Positions 13,969 through 46,808 of a DNA stretch of 64,000 bases are shown one piece after another. Made by a program: the position numbers and the translations under genes. This DNA is from an uncultured Candidatus Rokubacteria bacterium (lineage in GTDB: Bacteria > Methylomirabilota > Methylomirabilia > Rokubacteriales > CSP1-6), in the NCBI GenBank assembly GCA_963841755.1, contig CAWJDX010000011.1:412604-476603 (forward strand), read 5' to 3'. The notes under the pieces were generated by a model. The model ran no database searches and was not told where the DNA came from. It saw only the letters and a list, made by a program, of their open reading frames with translations. The first letter of the stretch is position 1; each line of letters starts with the position of its first letter.

Positions 13969-16854
<2,886 letters not shown>

Positions 16855-21445: not shown

Positions 21446-22753
21446 CTACTGGGCGGCCGGCCCGAGGGTCACGATCGTCGGCGCGGCGAGATAGGTCCGC
21501 GCCACGCGGAGCACGTCCTCCGCGCTGACCGCCTCCACCGCCCGGGTGTAGCGGTCGGCGAAGTCGAGCCCGACGCCGAGCGCCTCGAAGAAGGCGTCGT
21601 ACCAGGCCAGGCGCGCGTTGGTTCGCCGGTCGAGCGCGAACTGCCCGAGCAGGTACGCCTTGGCGCGGGTCAGCTCGGCGGGATTCACCGGATCGCGCCG
21701 GATCCGCTCCAGCTCGCCCAGCATGGCCGCCTCGGCGCGGACCTGGTTCGCCGGGGCGGTGCCGAGCTGCATATAGATGACGCCCGGTCCCAGCCGGGAG
21801 GGATAGGCGCCGCCGGTCGAGTAGGCCAGGCCCTGCTTGTCGCGCACCTCGGTGAAGAGGCGCCCGGCCATGCCGCCGCCCAGGGCGGTGGCCAGCACCT
21901 TCACCGCCGCGTAGTCGGGGTGCGACGTGGGCGGGGCGAGAAACGCGACCAGTACCTGCGCCTGCGCGGATGGCCTCACGAGCACGGTGCGGTCGGCGCG
22001 CGCCGCCGCGACGGGCAGCGCGGGCTCGCGCTCGCGCTCTCCCGCGGGTGCCGTCGCGAACCGGCGCGTGACCTCGGCGATCACCTCCCGCGCGTTGACG
22101 TCGCCGCTCACCGCCAGGATCATCCGCGGGGCCCGGTAGAAGCGCTGGTGGTACGCGAGCAGGGCGGCGCGATCGACGCGCTCGAGCGCGGCCGGTCGCC
22201 CGAGGATCGGGCGCCCGTAGGGATGGTCGCCGTACACGCGGCTCATGACGGTGTCCATCGCGAGCGGGAACGGCTGGTCCTGCCGGCTGCGCAGCGCGGT
22301 CAGCATCGCCCGCCGCTCGCCGTCGATCTCGGCGTCCGGCAGCGTCGGCCGGAGCGCGACGTCGGCCATCAGCTCGATCATCTTCTTCCAGTTCCGGGCG
22401 AGCGCGGTGGCGCGCAGCTCGGAGAAGTCCATGTCGGCCGATGCGCTGATTCCTCCGCCCAGGCCCTCCGCGGTCTCGGCGATCTCGAGGGCCGAGCGGG
22501 TCAGGGTTCCCTTGAGCAGCACCTGCTGCAGCAGGTGGGTGATGCCCGCGTCGTCCTCCGTCTCCCACCGCGAGCCGACGCGCACGAACAGCGAGGCGGC
22601 GACGATCGGGGTGGCGGTGTTCTCGCGCACCAGCACGGTGAGGCCGCTCGGCAGCTGCTCGCGCCGGGGCGCCTGGGCCGCCGCCACGCCGACCAGAGCC
22701 CACGCGGCCGTCGCGGCGAGCACCGCCGTCGAGACCACCCGCGACGCCCTCAC
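21446..22753 (-). CDS. M16-family (pitrilysin/insulinase-like) peptidase subunit with a degenerate zinc motif. It is probably the non-catalytic partner.
   Basis: ORF 21446..22888 trimmed to the GTG at 22751-22753, which overlaps the upstream stop (GTGA). It has a signal peptide (VVSTAVLAATAAWALVGVAAAQA). HLLQQ replaces HxxEH. Confidence 0.75.
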   Translation of the reverse strand: MRASRVVSTAVLAATAAWALVGVAAAQAPRREQLPSGLTVLVRENTATPIVAASLFVRVGSRWETEDDAGITHLLQQVLLKGTLTRSALEIAETAEGLGGGISASADMDFSELRATALARNWKKMIELMADVALRPTLPDAEIDGERRAMLTALRSRQDQPFPLAMDTVMSRVYGDHPYGRPILGRPAALERVDRAALLAYHQRFYRAPRMILAVSGDVNAREVIAEVTRRFATAPAGEREREPALPVAAARADRTVLVRPSAQAQVLVAFLAPPTSHPDYAAVKVLATALGGGMAGRLFTEVRDKQGLAYSTGGAYPSRLGPGVIYMQLGTAPANQVRAEAAMLGELERIRRDPVNPAELTRAKAYLLGQFALDRRTNARLAWYDAFFEALGVGLDFADRYTRAVEAVSAEDVLRVARTYLAAPTIVTLGPAAQ

Positions 22754-24099
22754 GGGGTCCGGGCCCGCGGGACGAAGGTGAGCCGCGCGTACGAGGGGGT
22801 CAGGTAGCGGCGCGCCGCCGCCTGCACGTCCGCCCGCGTCACCTTGCGCACGCGGTCCACGTAGGCGCGCTCGTCCTCCAGGTTCCACGTGGTCTCGGCG
22901 CGGCCGTACGCGAGGGCGAGTCCCTCCACCGTCTCGCGCGAGAACTCGCGCTCGGCCTCCGACGCGGTGATGGCCCGCGCCAGCTCATCCGGGGTGACCC
23001 CCTCGGACCGGACGCGCTCGACCTCGGCCAGGATGGCGCGCTCCACCGCATCCGCGTCCCGGCCTTCCAGCTGAGCGGTGACGCCGATGGCTCCCGCGCC
23101 CTGCAGCGCTCCGTACCAGCCGCTGATGCTCGAGACGAGCCGCGCGCGCTCCCGCAGCGCCTGGTTGAGCCGGGAGCTGCGCGAGCCGCCCAGGATATGG
23201 CCGAGCACGTCCACCGCGGCCATGTCGGGATCCCCGAGCGGCGGCCCGAGCCACGCGAGCCCGAGCTGGGTCTGTCGCTCGGGCCGCTCCACCGCCCGGT
23301 TGCGGACGCCGTCGAATCGGCCGGGCGCGGGGAGCGGCGGGCGCGTGTACGGCGCGGCCGGCCGGGCGCCGAATGCCTGCAGCGCGGCCGCTCGCACCGC
23401 GGCCGGATCGACGGGGCCGACCACCACCAGCGTCATGTTGTTCGGGACGTAGTAGCGCGCGTAGTAGCCACGGAGGGTCTCCTGGGTCGCGGCCCGCAGG
23501 TCGGCGGCGTCGCCCAGCACCGGCCGTCCGTACGGGTGCTCCTGGTAGAGCAGGCTGTAGAGCTGGCGTCCCAGCGACGAGCGCGGGTTGTCCTCGTTCA
23601 GCCGCACCTCCTCGAACACCACCTCGCGCTCCCGCGTGAGCTCGGTGGGATCGAAGACGGAGTTGAGCACCATGTCCGCGATCAGGGCGATGCCCGGCAG
23701 CGCGCGGGCCGCGGGGAGGAGCAGGTAGTAGAAGGTATAGTCGTTGGAGGTCCCCGCGTTGGTGCGTCCGCCCACCGACTCGACCTCGGATTCCACGAAG
23801 CCGCGCGGGCGCGTGGCGGTCCCCTTGAACAGCATGTGCTCCGCGAAGTGAGAGAAGCCGCGCTCGCCCACTGCCTCGTCACGTCCCCCGACCCCGGTCC
23901 AGAGATGAATCGCCACGGTGCTGGCGGCGCGGTGCTCCTGGATGATGAGGCGCATGCCGTTCGGGAGCACCTCGCGGATCGGAGCCGGTAGACCGTGCGA
24001 TGGAGCGGACGGTGCGGTGCCGGTGGCGCATCCGGCTGTCGTGAGGAGGACGATCGCGAGCGCGCAGACGCTTCTGCGTCTGCTGGGGGTGGGGGTCAT
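22750..24099 (-). CDS. M16-family zinc peptidase, a predicted lipoprotein. It is the catalytic subunit.
   Basis: Intact 449-aa ORF with a lipobox LLTTAGC, the inverted zinc motif HFAEHMLFKG and the downstream glutamate region (EREVVFEE). Confidence 0.8.
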   Translation of the reverse strand: MTPTPSRRRSVCALAIVLLTTAGCATGTAPSAPSHGLPAPIREVLPNGMRLIIQEHRAASTVAIHLWTGVGGRDEAVGERGFSHFAEHMLFKGTATRPRGFVESEVESVGGRTNAGTSNDYTFYYLLLPAARALPGIALIADMVLNSVFDPTELTREREVVFEEVRLNEDNPRSSLGRQLYSLLYQEHPYGRPVLGDAADLRAATQETLRGYYARYYVPNNMTLVVVGPVDPAAVRAAALQAFGARPAAPYTRPPLPAPGRFDGVRNRAVERPERQTQLGLAWLGPPLGDPDMAAVDVLGHILGGSRSSRLNQALRERARLVSSISGWYGALQGAGAIGVTAQLEGRDADAVERAILAEVERVRSEGVTPDELARAITASEAEREFSRETVEGLALAYGRAETTWNLEDERAYVDRVRKVTRADVQAAARRYLTPSYARLTFVPRARTP

Positions 24100-24275
24100 G
24101 GCGCTCCACGGTATCAGAGCGATGATGAGGCCTCAAGGGAGTCTCTTCCGAGGCAGATTGTCGATCCCCCTACCGGCGGCATGCCGGGCAGAACGCCCTC
24201 GTGGGTATCGGAACCAGAGAGGATAGTGATTCCTAAGATATTGATAAGACGGCCATCTCTAGATGTGGATCCCAA

Positions 24276-24291
24276 TGGCACCGGGCCTGCA
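24276..24291 (+). promoter_or_regulatory. Candidate sigma-54 (-24/-12) promoter for the repeat-protein gene.
   Basis: TGGCACcgggcCTGCA matches TGGCAC-N5-TTGCA at 10 of 11 positions. It lies about 100 nt upstream of the ATG at 24390, in a lower-GC intergenic region. Confidence 0.45.
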
Positions 24292-24389
24292 TCCTAAGGG
24301 CGCGAGTTGGGGCCCCCAGGGGGCCAAGAGGTGGAGCGGCGGTGGAAACGAAGTCAGGCATGAAAACGCAGTCAGAAAGGACGAATTCA

Positions 24390-25551
24390 ATGAAAAAGGT
24401 TCTCGCGAGTGTGTTGAGCGTGGTCACGATGGTCTCGCTCTCGGCCACGGTCGGGATGGCGCAGACCTCCTGCCCCGCCGAGGTGGCGTCGGCCAAGGCG
24501 ATGCTGAGCCAGACCGCCAAGGCTCAGGACGTGCAGGCACCCCGGTCGCTGGCGGGTGCGCGGCAGGACGTGCAGGCGCCGCGTAGCCAGGACATCCAGT
24601 CGCCCCGGAGCCAGGACGTTCAGGCGCCGCGGTCGCTGGCGGGTGCGCGGCAGGACGTGCAGGCGCCGCGTAGCCAGGACATCCAGTCTCCGCGTGGCCA
24701 GGACGTGCAGGCGCCGCGTGGTCAGGACGTCCAGTCTCCTCGTAGCCAGGACGTGCAGTCGCCCCGCAGCCAGGACATCCAGGCTCCCCGGTCGCTAGCG
24801 GGGGCGCGGCAGGACGTGCAGGCGCCGCGTAGCCAGGACATCCAGTCTCCGCGCAGCCAGGACGTGCAGGCGCCGCGCGGTCAGGACATCCAGTCTCCGC
24901 GCAGCCAGGACATTCAGTCGCCCCGGAGCCAGGACATCCAGTCTCCGCGCAGCCAGAACATCCAGTCGCCCCGCAGCCAGGACGTGCAGTCGCCGCGGAG
25001 CCAGGACATTCAGTCTCCGCGCAGCCAGGACATCCAGTCGCCCCGGAGCCAGGACATCCAGTCTCCGCGGTCGCAGGACGTCCAGTCTCCGCGCAGCCAG
25101 GACATCCAGTCGCCCCGTAGCCAGAACATCCAGTCGCCCCGCAGCCAGGACGTGCAGTCGCCCCGGAGCCAGGACATCCAGTCGCCGCGCAGCCAGGACA
25201 TCCAGTCGCCGCGGAGCCAGGACATCCAGTCTCCGCGGCAGCCAGGACGTGCAGTCGCCCCGTAGCCAGAACATCCAGTCGCCCCGCAGCCAGGACGTGC
25301 AGTCGCCCCGGAGCCAGGACATCCAGTCTCCGCGCAGCCAGGACATTCAGTCGCCCCGGAGCCAGGACATCCAGTCTCCGCGGTCGCAGGACATCCAGTC
25401 TCCGCGCAGCCAGGACATCCAGTCGCCCCGCTCGGCCGAGTTCAAGAAGGCCTCGACCCTCGTGAGCGAGGCTGAGGCGGCGTGCAAGGCGGGCAAGTCG
25501 TCCGTGGCGGCCGACAAGGCCAAGGCGGCGATGGAGCTGCTCAAGAAGTAA
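24390..25551 (+). CDS. Secreted tandem-repeat protein. It has a signal peptide, about 38 repeats of the octapeptide SQD(I/V)Q(S/A)PR, and a short helical C-terminal domain. The frame is broken inside the repeats near 25238.
   Basis: ORF 24342..25265 from the internal ATG at 24390 (AAGGA SD; MKKVLASVLSVVTMVSLSATVGMAQ...), joined to ORF 25249..25551 (...SAEFKKASTLVSEAEAACKAGKSSVAADKAKAAMELLKK). The junction unit ccgcggCagccagg carries one extra base compared with the neighbouring units. Confidence 0.7.
24520..25430 (+). repeat. Tandem array of about 38 units of 24 bp (consensus cagccaggacatccagtcgccccg), plus a few 39-bp variants carrying ctggcgggtgcgcgg.
   Basis: Direct reading shows contiguous in-frame units with no spacers. 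The variation is mostly at wobble positions and in I/V and S/A codons. Confidence 0.85.
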
Positions 25552-25571
25552 GTAGCGCCGAAGGAAAGCGA

Positions 25572-25608
25572 CGGCCCCGGGGCAGCTCTCCCGGGGCCGT
25601 TTCTTTTT
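25572..25608 (+). terminator. Intrinsic terminator after the repeat-protein gene.
   Basis: A 10-bp GC stem (cggccccggg / cccggggccg) with an 8-nt loop, followed by tttcttttt. Confidence 0.7.
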
Positions 25609-25614
25609 CCGTGG

Positions 25615-39755: not shown

Positions 39756-39773
39756 ATGGTGGAGGGTAAGGGA
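39756..39773 (+). repeat. Right direct repeat (attR-like), which is the 3' terminal 17 nt of tRNA-Ala plus 1 nt.
   Basis: It is identical to 28609..28626. Confidence 0.6.
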
Positions 39774-39832
39774 TTCGAACCCTCGACCTCGGCGTTGCGA
39801 ACGCCGCGCTCTCCCAACTGAGCTAACCCCCC
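39757..39832 (-). tRNA. tRNA-Ala (anticodon CGC), with an encoded CCA.
   Basis: The minus strand reads GGGGGGTTAGCTCAGTTGGGAGAGCGCGGCGTTCGCAACGCCGAGGTCGAGGGTTCGAATCCCTTACCCTCCACCA. The cloverleaf folds, the anticodon loop is TTCGCAA, and the G3:U70 alanine identity pair is present. Confidence 0.9.
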
Positions 39833-44269: not shown

Positions 44270-44659
44270 TCACCTCCCAGACTCGTGGGGTCCCTCGTTG
44301 GTGAGCGCGCCCTGCAGCACGGTGAGGGGCAGGGCCACGCACTTCATCCGGGACGGGCGGATATCGGAGTCGAGCCGCTCGAGGATGCTCTCGATCGTCA
44401 ACGCGCGGACCGTCGACGCAGGCTGGCCCGTCGCCATCTCCAGCAGCACGTCCGCGGACGCGGCCGAGATGGCGCAGCAATCGCCGGTCCACCGCCCCTC
44501 GACGAGCCGCCCGTCGGCGAGGTTCGCCTGGATGCGCACGCGGTCTCCGCAGAGCGGGTTCACGTCCTCTCCCGAGACGTCCGGCCGCTCGAGCGTGCCG
44601 CGGTACCGCGGCCGGCGGAACCGGTCGCGGATGACGTTGCTGTAGAGCGCCACGGTCAC
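44270..44659 (-). CDS. sufU: SufU/IscU-like sulfur-acceptor scaffold.
   Basis: 129 aa from the GTG at 44657-44659: ...NPLCGDRVRI...GDCCAISAASADVL...MKCVALPL. The start overlaps the upstream stop (GTGA). Confidence 0.8.
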   Translation of the reverse strand: MTVALYSNVIRDRFRRPRYRGTLERPDVSGEDVNPLCGDRVRIQANLADGRLVEGRWTGDCCAISAASADVLLEMATGQPASTVRALTIESILERLDSDIRPSRMKCVALPLTVLQGALTNEGPHESGR

Positions 44660-45708
44660 TCCGACAGCTCCCCGCGCGCGCCGCTCTTGCGGTAGGGCGG
44701 GAAGCGGTAGGCGCTGTCGCGCGACAGGAGGCCCCCGTGGCCGAGCGCGGCCAGCTCGGTCGCGCCGTCCGGCTCGCCGGCCAGGACGCGGGGCAGGACC
44801 AGATCGAAGGTGGTGGCCTGCGAGAACATCCCGCAGGCGGGCATGCCCAGCACCGGATGGCCGCGCAGGTCCGCGATCCAGAGCAGGCTGCCGGGATGGG
44901 CGGGCGCCCCGTGGCGGATCATCCGCCCGCCGAGGCGCTCGAGACCGGCGAAGACCGGATCGAGCGGATCGAGCGATCCGGCGCCCGCCGCGATCAGGAT
45001 CTGAGCCCCCGCGGCGAGCAGGCTCTCCATCTCGGCCGCGACCGCCCCCGCGTCGCCCGGCGTATAGCGCACCGGCAGGAGGCGCGATCCGAACCAGTCC
45101 ACCTTCTCGGTCAGCGAGGACTCGAACCGCTGGCGCTGGGGCGGGGCCAGGGTCTCTCGGCTCAGCGCCCCCAGGACGTGCGGGCGGAAGGTCTTCACCG
45201 CGACGAGGCCGCCCGCGCTCCACGCCCGCGACTCGGCGTCCTTCACGAGCCGCTCCGGGATCGCGAGCGGGGTGATCTTGGCTCGCGCGACCACCTCACC
45301 CGCCTCCACCGGCTGGAGATCGTAGAGGGTGAACACCGACATGCCCTCGAGCGCGTTCACCGCCGCGAGCGCGGCCACGTTCACCCGGACGAGGCCTCGG
45401 CGCTGGCCCGCGAGCGTCCACTGTCCGCCCGAGTAGCCCTTCACCTCGACCTGGTCGCCGCACGCCGCGGCGGCCAGCCGAGACCCGGCCGGCTCCTCGT
45501 GCACGTCGCCGGGGTCCAGCTCGAGCAGGTGCACCTCTCCGTCCCGCCACGGGAGCGCGAGCAGCTGGGCCGCCGCGGCCGCGTCGAGGGTCTGTCCCTT
45601 GGAGATCGCGATCCGTCCCGCTTCGTCCCGCACGTCGTGGCAGGCGATTCGCCCTTCGAGCGCGGCGGCGGCCGGCGAGGCCTCCTTCCGGATCGCAATG
45701 GCTCTCAT
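44656..45708 (-). CDS. MoeA-like molybdopterin-binding protein (MoCF-biosynthesis domain). Its exact function is unclear.
   Basis: 350-aa ORF. The C-terminal half resembles the MogA/MoeA fold (LIAAGAGSLDPLDPV...GMPACGMFSQATTFDLVLPRVLAGE). Confidence 0.6.
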   Translation of the reverse strand: MRAIAIRKEASPAAAALEGRIACHDVRDEAGRIAISKGQTLDAAAAAQLLALPWRDGEVHLLELDPGDVHEEPAGSRLAAAACGDQVEVKGYSGGQWTLAGQRRGLVRVNVAALAAVNALEGMSVFTLYDLQPVEAGEVVARAKITPLAIPERLVKDAESRAWSAGGLVAVKTFRPHVLGALSRETLAPPQRQRFESSLTEKVDWFGSRLLPVRYTPGDAGAVAAEMESLLAAGAQILIAAGAGSLDPLDPVFAGLERLGGRMIRHGAPAHPGSLLWIADLRGHPVLGMPACGMFSQATTFDLVLPRVLAGEPDGATELAALGHGGLLSRDSAYRFPPYRKSGARGELSE

Positions 45709-45717
45709 GCGCGCGTC

Positions 45718-46808
45718 TTACTTGAGGCCCCGGCGGACCTTCTCGGAGATCGGCATCCCGGTCGCCTTGCGCTGGACCGCGAGGGCCTCGGCCAGGATGC
45801 TGAGGGCGATCTCGGACGCGGACTGGGCGCCCAGGTCGAGGCCGATCGGCACCCGTACCCGCGCGAGCGGTCCTCGCTCACCCCGTCTTCGCGCAGCAGG
45901 TTCAGGATGGCGGCTCCGCGCCGCGTGCTGCCGAGGAGCCCGACGTAGCCGACCGGCGTGCCGAGCGCGTGGCGCAGCACCGGCAGGTCGTACTTGTAGT
46001 CGTGCGCCACCAGCACCAGCGCGGTGGTCGGGATGAGCGGCACCTGCTGAATCAGCTCGGACGGCACGCCGATCCGGAGCGCGTCCACGTGGGGGAAGCG
46101 CTCCGGGGTCGCGAAGCGGGGCCGCCCGTCGATCACGACGGTGCGGAAGCCGAGCTCCTTGGCCATCACGGTCAGCGGCATCGCCACGTGGCTCGCTCCC
46201 ACCACCAGGAGGATGGCGGGCGGGGTGAAGACCTCCGCGAAGGCCCGCACGTTCTCGAGAAAGAGGGTGCGCGACTTGCCCGCCTCCAGCGCCTGCCGGG
46301 CCTCCGCCGCGAAGCGCTCGTCGAGGAACGGATCGCCCAGGCTGCCCTCGCGGTCGCCCCGATCGAGGATCAGGAGCTTGGCCCCGTCGTGGGGCGGGTC
46401 GAGGCGCGTGACGATCGCGGCGCGGCCCCCGGTCTCGGCGTGAGCCCGCGCCTTCTCGTGGAAGGCGAGCGTGGCGTCGTCGGCCCGGTCGAGATCCAGC
46501 GGCTCCACGAACACCTCGATGGTCCCGCCGCACGTGAGCCCGATCTCCCACGCCTCCTCGTCGCCCAGGTTCAGCTCGAGCAGCCGCGGGGCGTTCTTGT
46601 CCATCACGTCGGCCGACTCCTCGATGACCTGGGCGTCCACGCACCCGCCGATGGTCACCGAGCCGAGCACGCGGCCTCCCTCGCCCACCAGCATCTTGGC
46701 CCCTTCCTTCCGGGGCGTGGTGCCGCGGGTGTTGACGAGCGTGGCCACCGCCACCCTCGACTCGTTCTGCTTGAGCTGGTTCAGCTGATCGAAGAGCTCG
46801 TCGCCCAT
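45718..46808 (-). CDS. xdhC: XdhC/CoxI-family Moco-insertion/sulfuration chaperone. The frame is broken near 45855.
   Basis: ORF 45705..47084 from the internal ATG at 46806-46808 (MGDELFDQLNQLKQNESRVAVATLVNTRGTTPRKEGAKMLV...). The C-terminus (...RVRVPIGLDLGAQSASEIALSILAEALAVQRK...) is the end of ORF 45718..46644, in an adjacent frame. Confidence 0.75.

Follow-up and report, generated by a model that had tools for sequence, protein, structure and literature searches.

Can a gene whose reading frame is broken by one base inside a long tandem repeat still be a working gene and, if so, what kind of protein does it encode? The question is raised by a locus in a 64,000-nucleotide stretch of DNA from an uncultured Candidatus Rokubacteria bacterium (GenBank assembly GCA_963841755.1, contig CAWJDX010000011.1, positions 412,604 to 476,603, forward strand), which we call the window and in whose numbering all coordinates are given unless a related locus is named. 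The coding region, 24390..25551 on the plus strand, specifies a signal peptide, a short Cys-bearing helix, 36 tandem units, most of them octapeptides, and a helical tail; a single extra base near 25238 breaks its frame. A sequence-only reading had described a repeat protein that is exported by Sec and ends in a helical tail, a description that holds, and had offered three accounts of the break: assembly error, slipped-strand phase variation and pseudogenisation. We conclude, with a probability of about 0.7, that the locus holds a complete, working gene from an undescribed family specific to Rokubacteria, which are abundant, uncultivated soil bacteria, and that the one-base break is an assembly error.

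The octapeptide array and its protein family

The array occupies 24525..25434 on the plus strand and follows the pattern [SG]Q[DN][IV]Q[SA]PR. It was identified with Tandem Repeats Finder, whose scores reach 801-881, and was divided into units by splitting the DNA at each CAG[GA]AC. This yielded 32 units of 24 bp, three of 39 bp and one of 25 bp. The 39-bp units, at 24525, 24612 and 24771, encode QD[VI]QAPRSLAGAR, that is, a unit with a SLAGAR insert. The tandem array and its 39-bp LAGAR variants are therefore as described in the sequence-only reading, but its figure of about 38 octapeptides has to be lowered to 36. The 33 24-mers comprise 20 distinct DNA units and only 6 distinct peptides; the variation falls mostly in third codon positions, and the Ser codon changes from AGC to TCG in three units. 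Therefore, the peptide is under selection, and the array is protein-coding sequence, more than repetitive DNA. The repeat region of 302 residues consists of 24% Q, 20% S, 13% R, 12% P and 11% D, with a charged fraction of 0.24, a net charge of +6 and a grand average of hydropathy (GRAVY) of -1.55; it is an expanded, hydrated polyampholyte. An 8-unit block of 191 nt is duplicated inside the array (25240-25430 is 95% identical to 24927-25117), and a higher-order period of 6-7 units shows in the spacing of three CAGAAC (Asn) units.

For searches we used the 386-residue protein obtained by deleting the extra base from the window open reading frame (ORF). The full-length protein retrieved 111 proteins, nearly all of one architecture: a signal peptide, the motif C-P-[PA]-E-[VL]..AK.ML and then ..QAPRSLAGAR at the N-terminus, a run of x-Q/E-D/E/N-x-Q-[AS]-[PAG]-R octapeptides, and L[VI].EAEAAC[KA].G......KA.AA..L.K at the C-terminus. 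The window protein has the N-terminal motif in the form C-P-[PA]-E-[VL]..A[KQ].[ML] (QTSCPAEVASAKAML), a first unit that ends in PRSLAGAR and is followed by octapeptides and, in the frame after the extra base, the C-terminal hairpin motif L[VI].EAE.AC[KA].G...KA.AA..L[LM]K with its invariant Cys (TLVSEAEAACKAGKSSVAADKAKAAMELLKK). Searching with the two ends alone added 478 proteins, whose lengths step by 8 residues (105, 113, 121 ... 169), and an exhaustive profile search gave 404 representatives at the 50% identity level with E<=0.001, 205 of them with E<=1e-10. When one genome per species was scanned, 84 loci were found, nearly all labelled Candidatus Rokubacteria, Rokuibacteriota or Methylomirabilota; the nearest relative of the window in this set is L084, at ~81% nucleotide identity. 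The gene thus belongs to a large, undescribed protein family that is specific to Rokubacteria.

Some loci carry other labels, namely Nitrosocosmicus (an archaeon), Limnocylindria, Acidoferrum, Dormiibacterota, Binatia and Deferrimicrobiaceae (L022, L026, L035, L044, L054, L060 and L061). The oddly labelled contigs all come from one bin catalogue, those that were checked have Rokubacterial synteny, and some are ~80% identical to the window at the nucleotide level; they are probably mis-binned.

The sequence-only reading could not place the repeat in any known family, which holds for the curated ones (Pfam, NCBIfam and PDB); it missed the large family in Rokubacteria and, in the low-GC region upstream, the conserved sigma-54 promoter architecture described below. 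Neither Pfam nor NCBIfam gave a real match for the protein, Pfam gave none for the two ends alone, and phmmer against all PDB sequences had no match at E<=10. An exact-sequence look-up of the window ORF returned no record, and a literature search on the repeat peptides, and on sigma-54 control, tandem repeats or secretion in Rokubacteria, turned up nothing relevant. Two NCBIfam candidates were rejected: thiovarsolin (NF033878), which scored 17.5 bits against a cut-off of 35, and STY0301, which was below its cut-off.

The units differ between lineages. Lineage-specific flavours such as GQEVQAPR, GENPQAAR and TQDVNAPR point to concerted evolution of the array, and we envisage that array length shifts by whole units through unequal recombination, with the units being homogenised within each lineage. 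The part of the unit that is invariant across lineages is Q-[AS]-[PAG]-R, in which Pro is replaced by Ala or Gly in some lineages (QAAR, QAGR). This invariance hints at recognition, by binding or cleavage, rather than at pure bulk properties.

A ribosome-binding site, GAAAGGA (24375..24381, plus strand), is predicted from the sequence 8 nt 5' of the ATG at 24390, and the GAAAGGA block is kept in the upstream alignment described below. The Sec signal peptide MKKVLASVLSVVTMVSLSATVGMA (24390..24461) comprises the first 24 residues of the translation, MKK, a hydrophobic core and GMA, with a predicted signal peptidase I cut after GMA; it agrees with the sequence-only reading, the call was made by inspection, and the n, h and c regions are conserved in both family alignments, A1 and A2. 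Cleavage would leave an exported form of 362 residues. It begins with the N-terminal cap QTSCPAEVASAKAMLSQTAKA (24462..24524), which bears the invariant Cys-Pro and would form helix 1 of the clasp discussed below; its C, P and E are invariant in A1. A lipobox of the form [LVI][ASTVI][GAS]C is absent here, as the residues before the invariant Cys are Q-T-S in the window and are variable and polar across the family. Beyond the array, the C-terminal cap AEFKKASTLVSEAEAACKAGKSSVAADKAKAAMELLKK and the stop codon (25435..25551) encode a tail of 38 residues (AEFKK...LLKK) with the second invariant Cys and the putative helices 2 and 3.

The frame break near 25238

The 25-bp unit CAGGACATCCAGTCTCCGCGGCAGC (25218..25242, plus strand) contains one extra base in CGCGG-C-AGC, at ~25238, which splits the frame into ORFs 24342..25265 and 25249..25551, exactly as had been read from the sequence. 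Of the three accounts offered for it, assembly error is the best supported, on the strength of unit lengths that keep the frame, relatives that are in frame, a second frameshift in secA and a pattern that follows Nanopore sequencing, and we regard it as probable. The two caps are in one frame without a stop codon in 57 of the 67 loci that have both. Among the ten that are out of frame, three have runs of N in the array, one has a mis-joined 35-bp unit, and six are MFD metagenome-assembled genomes (MAGs), the product of deep Nanopore sequencing (PMC12313526). Short-read relatives are in frame save for scaffold gaps and the one mis-joined unit. L084, the closest relative, is itself a Nanopore (MFD) MAG whose array is likewise broken, and in a noisy, 92%-identical contig (L086) many genes are fragmented, with 147 gap openings across 6.6 kb.

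The window has a comparable fault in secA (13969..16854, minus strand), where the frame changes near 14565-14575. In tblastn comparisons the SecA proteins of relatives match one frame up to residue 766 and another from residue 763; the true C-terminus with its zinc motif lies in the second frame and the N-terminal 760 residues in the other, and nucleotide alignment with relatives shows a net gain of one base. Since secA is essential, this frameshift indicates that the window assembly carries indel errors. The secA case is drawn from tblastn and translation, as a frame-plot of GC content at third codon positions (GC3) was too noisy for counting frameshifts across the window. At 44650-46130 the ORFs of relatives align in two or three frames, and further indels may exist there, either in the window or in the relatives.

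If the frameshift were real, the gene would be a recent pseudogene in this strain or would make a truncated product of 291 residues that lacks the C-terminal cap. The extra base does stand in the sequence as given, and it lies exactly at the left edge of the 191-nt duplicated block, a boundary that could be an imprecise recombination junction; in addition, a neighbouring protease gene has already been lost in the clade of the window, so the whole module may be decaying. However, no further damage is seen: the eight units that remain 3' of 25238 and the entire cap are undamaged, open and conserved in the shifted frame. Together with the frameshift in essential secA and the way in which array breaks track Nanopore assemblies, this makes a real frameshift an unlikely explanation. 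It is nonetheless a point against our call that the base falls at the edge of the duplication, where a real junction is possible; the call, drawn from assembled sequence, is a probable one.

A long, near-perfect tandem array is also a classic substrate for slippage, which had suggested a reversible phase-variation switch. This idea did not survive closer inspection. The units are 24 or 39 bp long, all multiples of 3 bp, and therefore neither slippage nor unequal recombination can switch the frame by gain or loss of units; in keeping with this, the lengths of related proteins differ by multiples of 8 residues. The insertion site CGCGG-C-AGC is neither a homopolymer nor a short repeat tract, and no relative has a conserved shift at the site. 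Programmed ribosomal frameshifting by +1 was rejected as well, because a slippery or stop-codon context is absent and the shift is not conserved. We consider a switch of either kind extremely improbable.

The type of assembly also affects the apparent length of the array. From N-cap to C-cap the distance has a median of 1034 nt in Nanopore MAGs (range 756-1262, n=11) and of 558 nt in other assemblies (range 210-885, n=54), and 13 short-read contigs end within the array. Therefore, short-read assemblies probably compress the octapeptide arrays, and copy numbers taken from them are unreliable, which limits our own comparison. The 36 units of the window are typical of long-read assemblies and represent no unusual expansion. 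Because short-read assemblies compress or break such arrays and Nanopore assemblies introduce false frameshifts, caution is needed both with repeat numbers in the octapeptide family and with any verdict of "pseudogene".

The upstream control region and neighbouring genes

The gene is preceded by an intergenic region (24100..24400) with a GC content of 0.55-0.58, compared with ~0.70-0.75 in the flanks, in agreement with the sequence-only reading. An alignment of 25 sequences, each the 420 nt that precede the Cys codon (in the window or in one of 24 other loci), shows islands of conservation within a flank that is otherwise hard to align. The strongest island, TGGCA[CT]-N5-[TCG]TGC[AT], is the sigma-54 -24/-12 consensus. 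In the window it corresponds to a putative sigma-54 promoter, TGGCACCGGGCCTGCA (24276..24291, plus strand; GG at 24277-24278 and GC at 24289-24290), with a -24 element TGGCAC and a -12 element TTGCW at the exact spacing and in the right orientation 5' of the gene. The pattern TGGCAYN5YTGCW has a single match in the 64-kb window (0.16 expected), and 53 of 63 related loci have a relaxed form of the motif at the corresponding position (0.017 expected per locus). Transcription is predicted to start near 24302, giving an 88-nt leader. An Rfam scan of the whole window had one tRNA (39760..39832, minus strand) as its sole match, and none in the leader.

Two further islands lie upstream of the promoter and are candidate sites for an enhancer-binding protein. 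Box 1, GGCAGATTGTCG (24152..24163, plus strand), follows a family consensus palindrome GGCA-N3-TGCC and is located ~150 nt 5' of the predicted transcription start. Box 2, GGGCAGAACGCC (24186..24197, plus strand), is an imperfect GGCA-N3-YGCC that is conserved in the alignment, ~115 nt 5' of the predicted start and about three helical turns from box 1. Among the 49 loci with the strict sigma-54 pattern, a match to box 1 lies at a fixed distance of 98-113 nt from the -24 box in 41, and a match to box 2 lies 56-123 nt (mostly 65-80 nt) upstream of it, also in 41. An AT-rich stretch between the boxes and the promoter contains a site resembling that of integration host factor (IHF), TAAGATATTGATA, which matches YAANNNNTTGATW (24234..24246, plus strand). 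Only its TAA is invariant in the 25 sequences, and the relaxed consensus YAA-N4-TTGA[TAC] occurs in only 9 of the 49 loci, so that this part of the arrangement is weaker. Taken together, the boxes, the IHF-like site and the promoter look like a classical enhancer-dependent layout. We infer that an activator binds at the GGCA-N3-YGCC boxes and that the gene is subject to enhancer-dependent induction; the promoter and the candidate enhancer sites could serve to identify the regulator and the signal to which it responds.

Transcription would then end at an intrinsic terminator found by terminator search at 25570..25601 (plus strand), within an element set at 25570..25611 and made up of a 13-pair GC-rich stem followed by the T-tract TCTTTTTCC, and the transcript would be monocistronic. 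The region has 3 terminator-like matches against 0.3 expected, counterparts of the terminator are found after the gene in L001 and L024, and the earlier mention of a strong terminator at the gene end was thus correct.

In two MAGs a second copy of the family gene was observed in an unrelated context (L028 with L064, and L018 with L079). These second copies are short, with ~8 units in L064 and ~5 in L079. The one in L079 showed no sigma-54 motif at the upstream position where the motif normally lies.

Upstream of the gene, on the minus strand, lies the conserved run secA-recN-nadK-tlyA-rhomboid-M16-M16. With phnE/phnC downstream, this run is consistent with the sequence-only description of the gene as the sole sizeable plus-strand gene within 28 kb of minus-strand genes. 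In 43 of 56 loci the repeat gene diverges from the M16 pair, as it does in the window. The M16 peptidase next to the repeat gene (22750..24099, minus strand) begins MTPTPSRRRSVCALAIVLLTTAGCATG, a possible lipoprotein signal, and the pair may also act in the envelope.

Downstream, 44 of 76 loci have a gene for a ~440-residue HtrA/DegS-like S1 protease directly after the repeat gene and on the same strand. Its product has a signal peptide, an S1 domain, a transmembrane helix and a short cytoplasmic tail; the best PDB match is DegS (1e-12), and the TNGH, DLALL and GNSGGP motifs are intact. The terminator between the two genes leaves ~25 nt before the protease start, with no room for a promoter, and therefore the protease is probably expressed by read-through. 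The two genes are paired even where no upstream M16 gene was detected (L008, L031, L085), which strengthens the link between them. In L001 (8735-10063), and also in L004, L006, L024 and others, the protease lacks a PDZ domain and has its transmembrane helix near residue 350. The tail of the protease looks rhodanese-like, an unusual combination of domains.

In the clade of the window the protease gene is absent and phnE/phnC, on the minus strand, adjoin the repeat gene directly downstream, an arrangement seen in 15 of 76 loci. No homologue of the protease is present elsewhere in the 64-kb window. Intermediates such as L024, L033 and L072 have both the protease and phnE/phnC, and L014 (4337-4573) retains a protease remnant of ~80 residues between the repeat gene and phnE, evidence that the protease was lost in the ancestry of the clade of the window.

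Predicted structure and possible roles

AlphaFold2 models were made for two homologues. For P0003 (28 sequences) helices are predicted at 31-47, 183-198 and 202-216 with a block-mean predicted local distance difference test (pLDDT) of 74-88, and the repeats have pLDDT <50 nearly throughout. P0156, a minimal member with one or two units (45 sequences), has helices at 30-48, 68-85 and 89-104, with a block-mean pLDDT of 74-84 and a predicted template modelling score (pTM) of 0.46. Across these models the helix of the N-terminal cap has a block-mean pLDDT of 74-82 and the helical hairpin of the C-terminal cap 74-88. The repeats are thus predicted to be disordered. A Foldseek comparison of both models with the PDB returned only generic helical hairpins and three-helix bundles at E ~1; for P0156 the best matches were the small three-helix bundles 2pmr and 4fzo over 72-78 columns, also at E ~1, values that speak to fold class only and not to homology.

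The invariant cysteines are Cys28 and Cys84 in P0156. In a bundle of up-down-up topology, helix 1 begins at the same end at which helix 2 finishes, and both cysteines are there; a disulfide between them is therefore plausible. We infer that the protein is exported through Sec, loses its signal peptide and folds its N-terminal helix and C-terminal hairpin into a small three-helix clasp, split in sequence and probably stapled by the two cysteines. The clasp would close the ~300-residue array, a Gln-rich D/R polyampholyte with one Pro per 8 residues, into a disordered and strongly hydrated loop.

A folded array was suggested by a match to the Pfam family Gp5_trimer_C (PF22178), which scored 60 bits against a cut-off of 30.9 and shares the 8-residue period of T4 gp5. 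The repeats would then form a triple-stranded beta-helix of a secreted needle or fibre. However, scrambled or reversed 8-mers of equal composition scored 49, 31 and 63 bits, the phmmer search of PDB sequences was empty, and the AlphaFold models show no strands, with pLDDT <50. We therefore rejected membership of Gp5_trimer_C as an artefact of periodicity and give such a fibre next to no credence.

An S-layer-associated or adhesin-like role, which had been raised as speculation, also finds little in its favour. The protein is exported, repetitive and variable in length, like many surface proteins, but no signal for anchoring, an SLH domain, a lipobox, an autotransporter or a sortase turned up with Pfam or NCBIfam, the caps make up a tiny helical bundle, and only 362 residues remain after export, most of them disordered by prediction. 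We regard this role as highly doubtful.

Somewhat more can be said for a polyprotein precursor, in which periplasmic proteases would cut each of the 36 Pro-Arg/Ser(Gly) junctions and free dozens of identical octapeptides as a signal or another extracellular product. The unit-final Arg is invariant, the Q-[AS]-P-R core is kept across lineages as other positions drift, P-R followed by G or S resembles what we take to be a serine-protease site, and the gene is flanked by the M16 pair and in most relatives by the S1 protease as well. Against this, the neighbouring S1 enzyme is HtrA/DegS-like, a type of protease that generally cleaves after aliphatic residues; the two M16 genes are part of a housekeeping operon of the opposite strand; Pro gives way to Ala or Gly in some lineages; no modifying enzymes are encoded nearby; and a pure precursor role leaves the conserved, Cys-bearing caps unexplained. 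We consider it improbable. If it were true, the protein would be what yeast alpha-factor or the KEX2-processed repeat proteins are in fungi, but in a bacterium, with the disulfide-stapled clasp as a handle presenting the loop to the protease.

For the intact, exported loop protein that we favour, a possible role, put forward tentatively, is that of an inducible envelope polyampholyte, a filler or protectant of the periplasm that the HtrA-like protease would turn over or cooperate with. Several points weigh against this picture. The clade of the window has no protease neighbour. Dependence on sigma-54 is deduced from conservation of the promoter motif, and no gene for a GAFTGA-motif activator is present in the window or within 10 kb of the gene in any locus. 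The clasp and its disulfide derive from a model of moderate confidence (pTM 0.46) and from topology.

The gene encodes a phylum-wide, probably inducible exported protein that has gone without annotation, in which a tiny split helical clasp would close a long disordered loop, and it offers a test case for disordered envelope proteins acting together with HtrA-type proteases. The protein would also be a very easy metaproteomic marker, as trypsin would release one octapeptide in 20-40 copies per molecule.

We view the protein as a new family within the known class of secreted, disordered tandem-repeat proteins, in which the split clasp is unusual and the sigma-54 control region well defined. Its nearest known counterparts in function are Asr, ZraP/CpxP, the hydrophilins and the multi-copy peptide precursors; it is included in none of these families. 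E. coli Asr is a small, Sec-exported, stress-inducible and largely disordered protein with imperfect internal repeats that is exposed to periplasmic proteases. The window protein resembles it in being exported, largely disordered and repeat-bearing, but there is no sequence relation (Pfam gave artefacts only), and the window protein differs in its Cys-bearing split helical clasp, its exact octapeptides in 30-50 copies and its putative sigma-54 promoter. ZraP, CpxP and Spy are small, helical, exported proteins of envelope stress; expression of zraP depends on sigma-54, and the HtrA protease DegP degrades CpxP. These features recall the putative sigma-54 promoter of the window and the HtrA-like gene downstream in most relatives. 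However, the window protein has no LTXXQ motif or match to that family, its bulk is a disordered repeat loop, and no two-component system adjoins the gene.

Hydrophilins and LEA proteins share with it a very hydrophilic composition, short tandem repeats and predicted disorder, and a soil organism faces drying. LEA proteins, however, are found mostly in the cytoplasm, and their repeats are 11-mers folding into amphipathic helices, in contrast to the Pro-containing 8-mers of an exported protein with helical clasp caps. Yeast alpha-factor, the fungal KEX2-processed repeat proteins and thiovarsolin likewise combine a signal peptide with many identical short units ending in a basic residue, but maturation enzymes are missing from the vicinity of the window gene, and conserved folded caps would be unexpected in a precursor. 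A multi-core precursor of a ribosomally synthesised and post-translationally modified peptide, of the thiovarsolin type (NF033878), is not indicated by the neighbours either, which are peptidases, housekeeping genes and an ABC transporter. In the streptococcal alpha C/Rib proteins the number of repeats varies by whole units with the frame kept, as in the present family; their repeats, however, are folded domains of ~80 residues in wall-anchored proteins, compared with disordered units of 8 residues and no anchor.

Finally, two matches of the profile search, P0251 and P0365, were set aside as unrelated proteins that have only a similar octapeptide in common with the family. P0365 (475 aa) contains ~25 copies of an octapeptide RQ[VI]D[VL]Q[TA]P, sharing D-hydrophobic-Q-small-P-R with the family. 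Its N-terminal domain is unlike that of the family, and it has a membrane anchor at the C-terminus; the likeness may have arisen by convergence or may belong to a broader motif.

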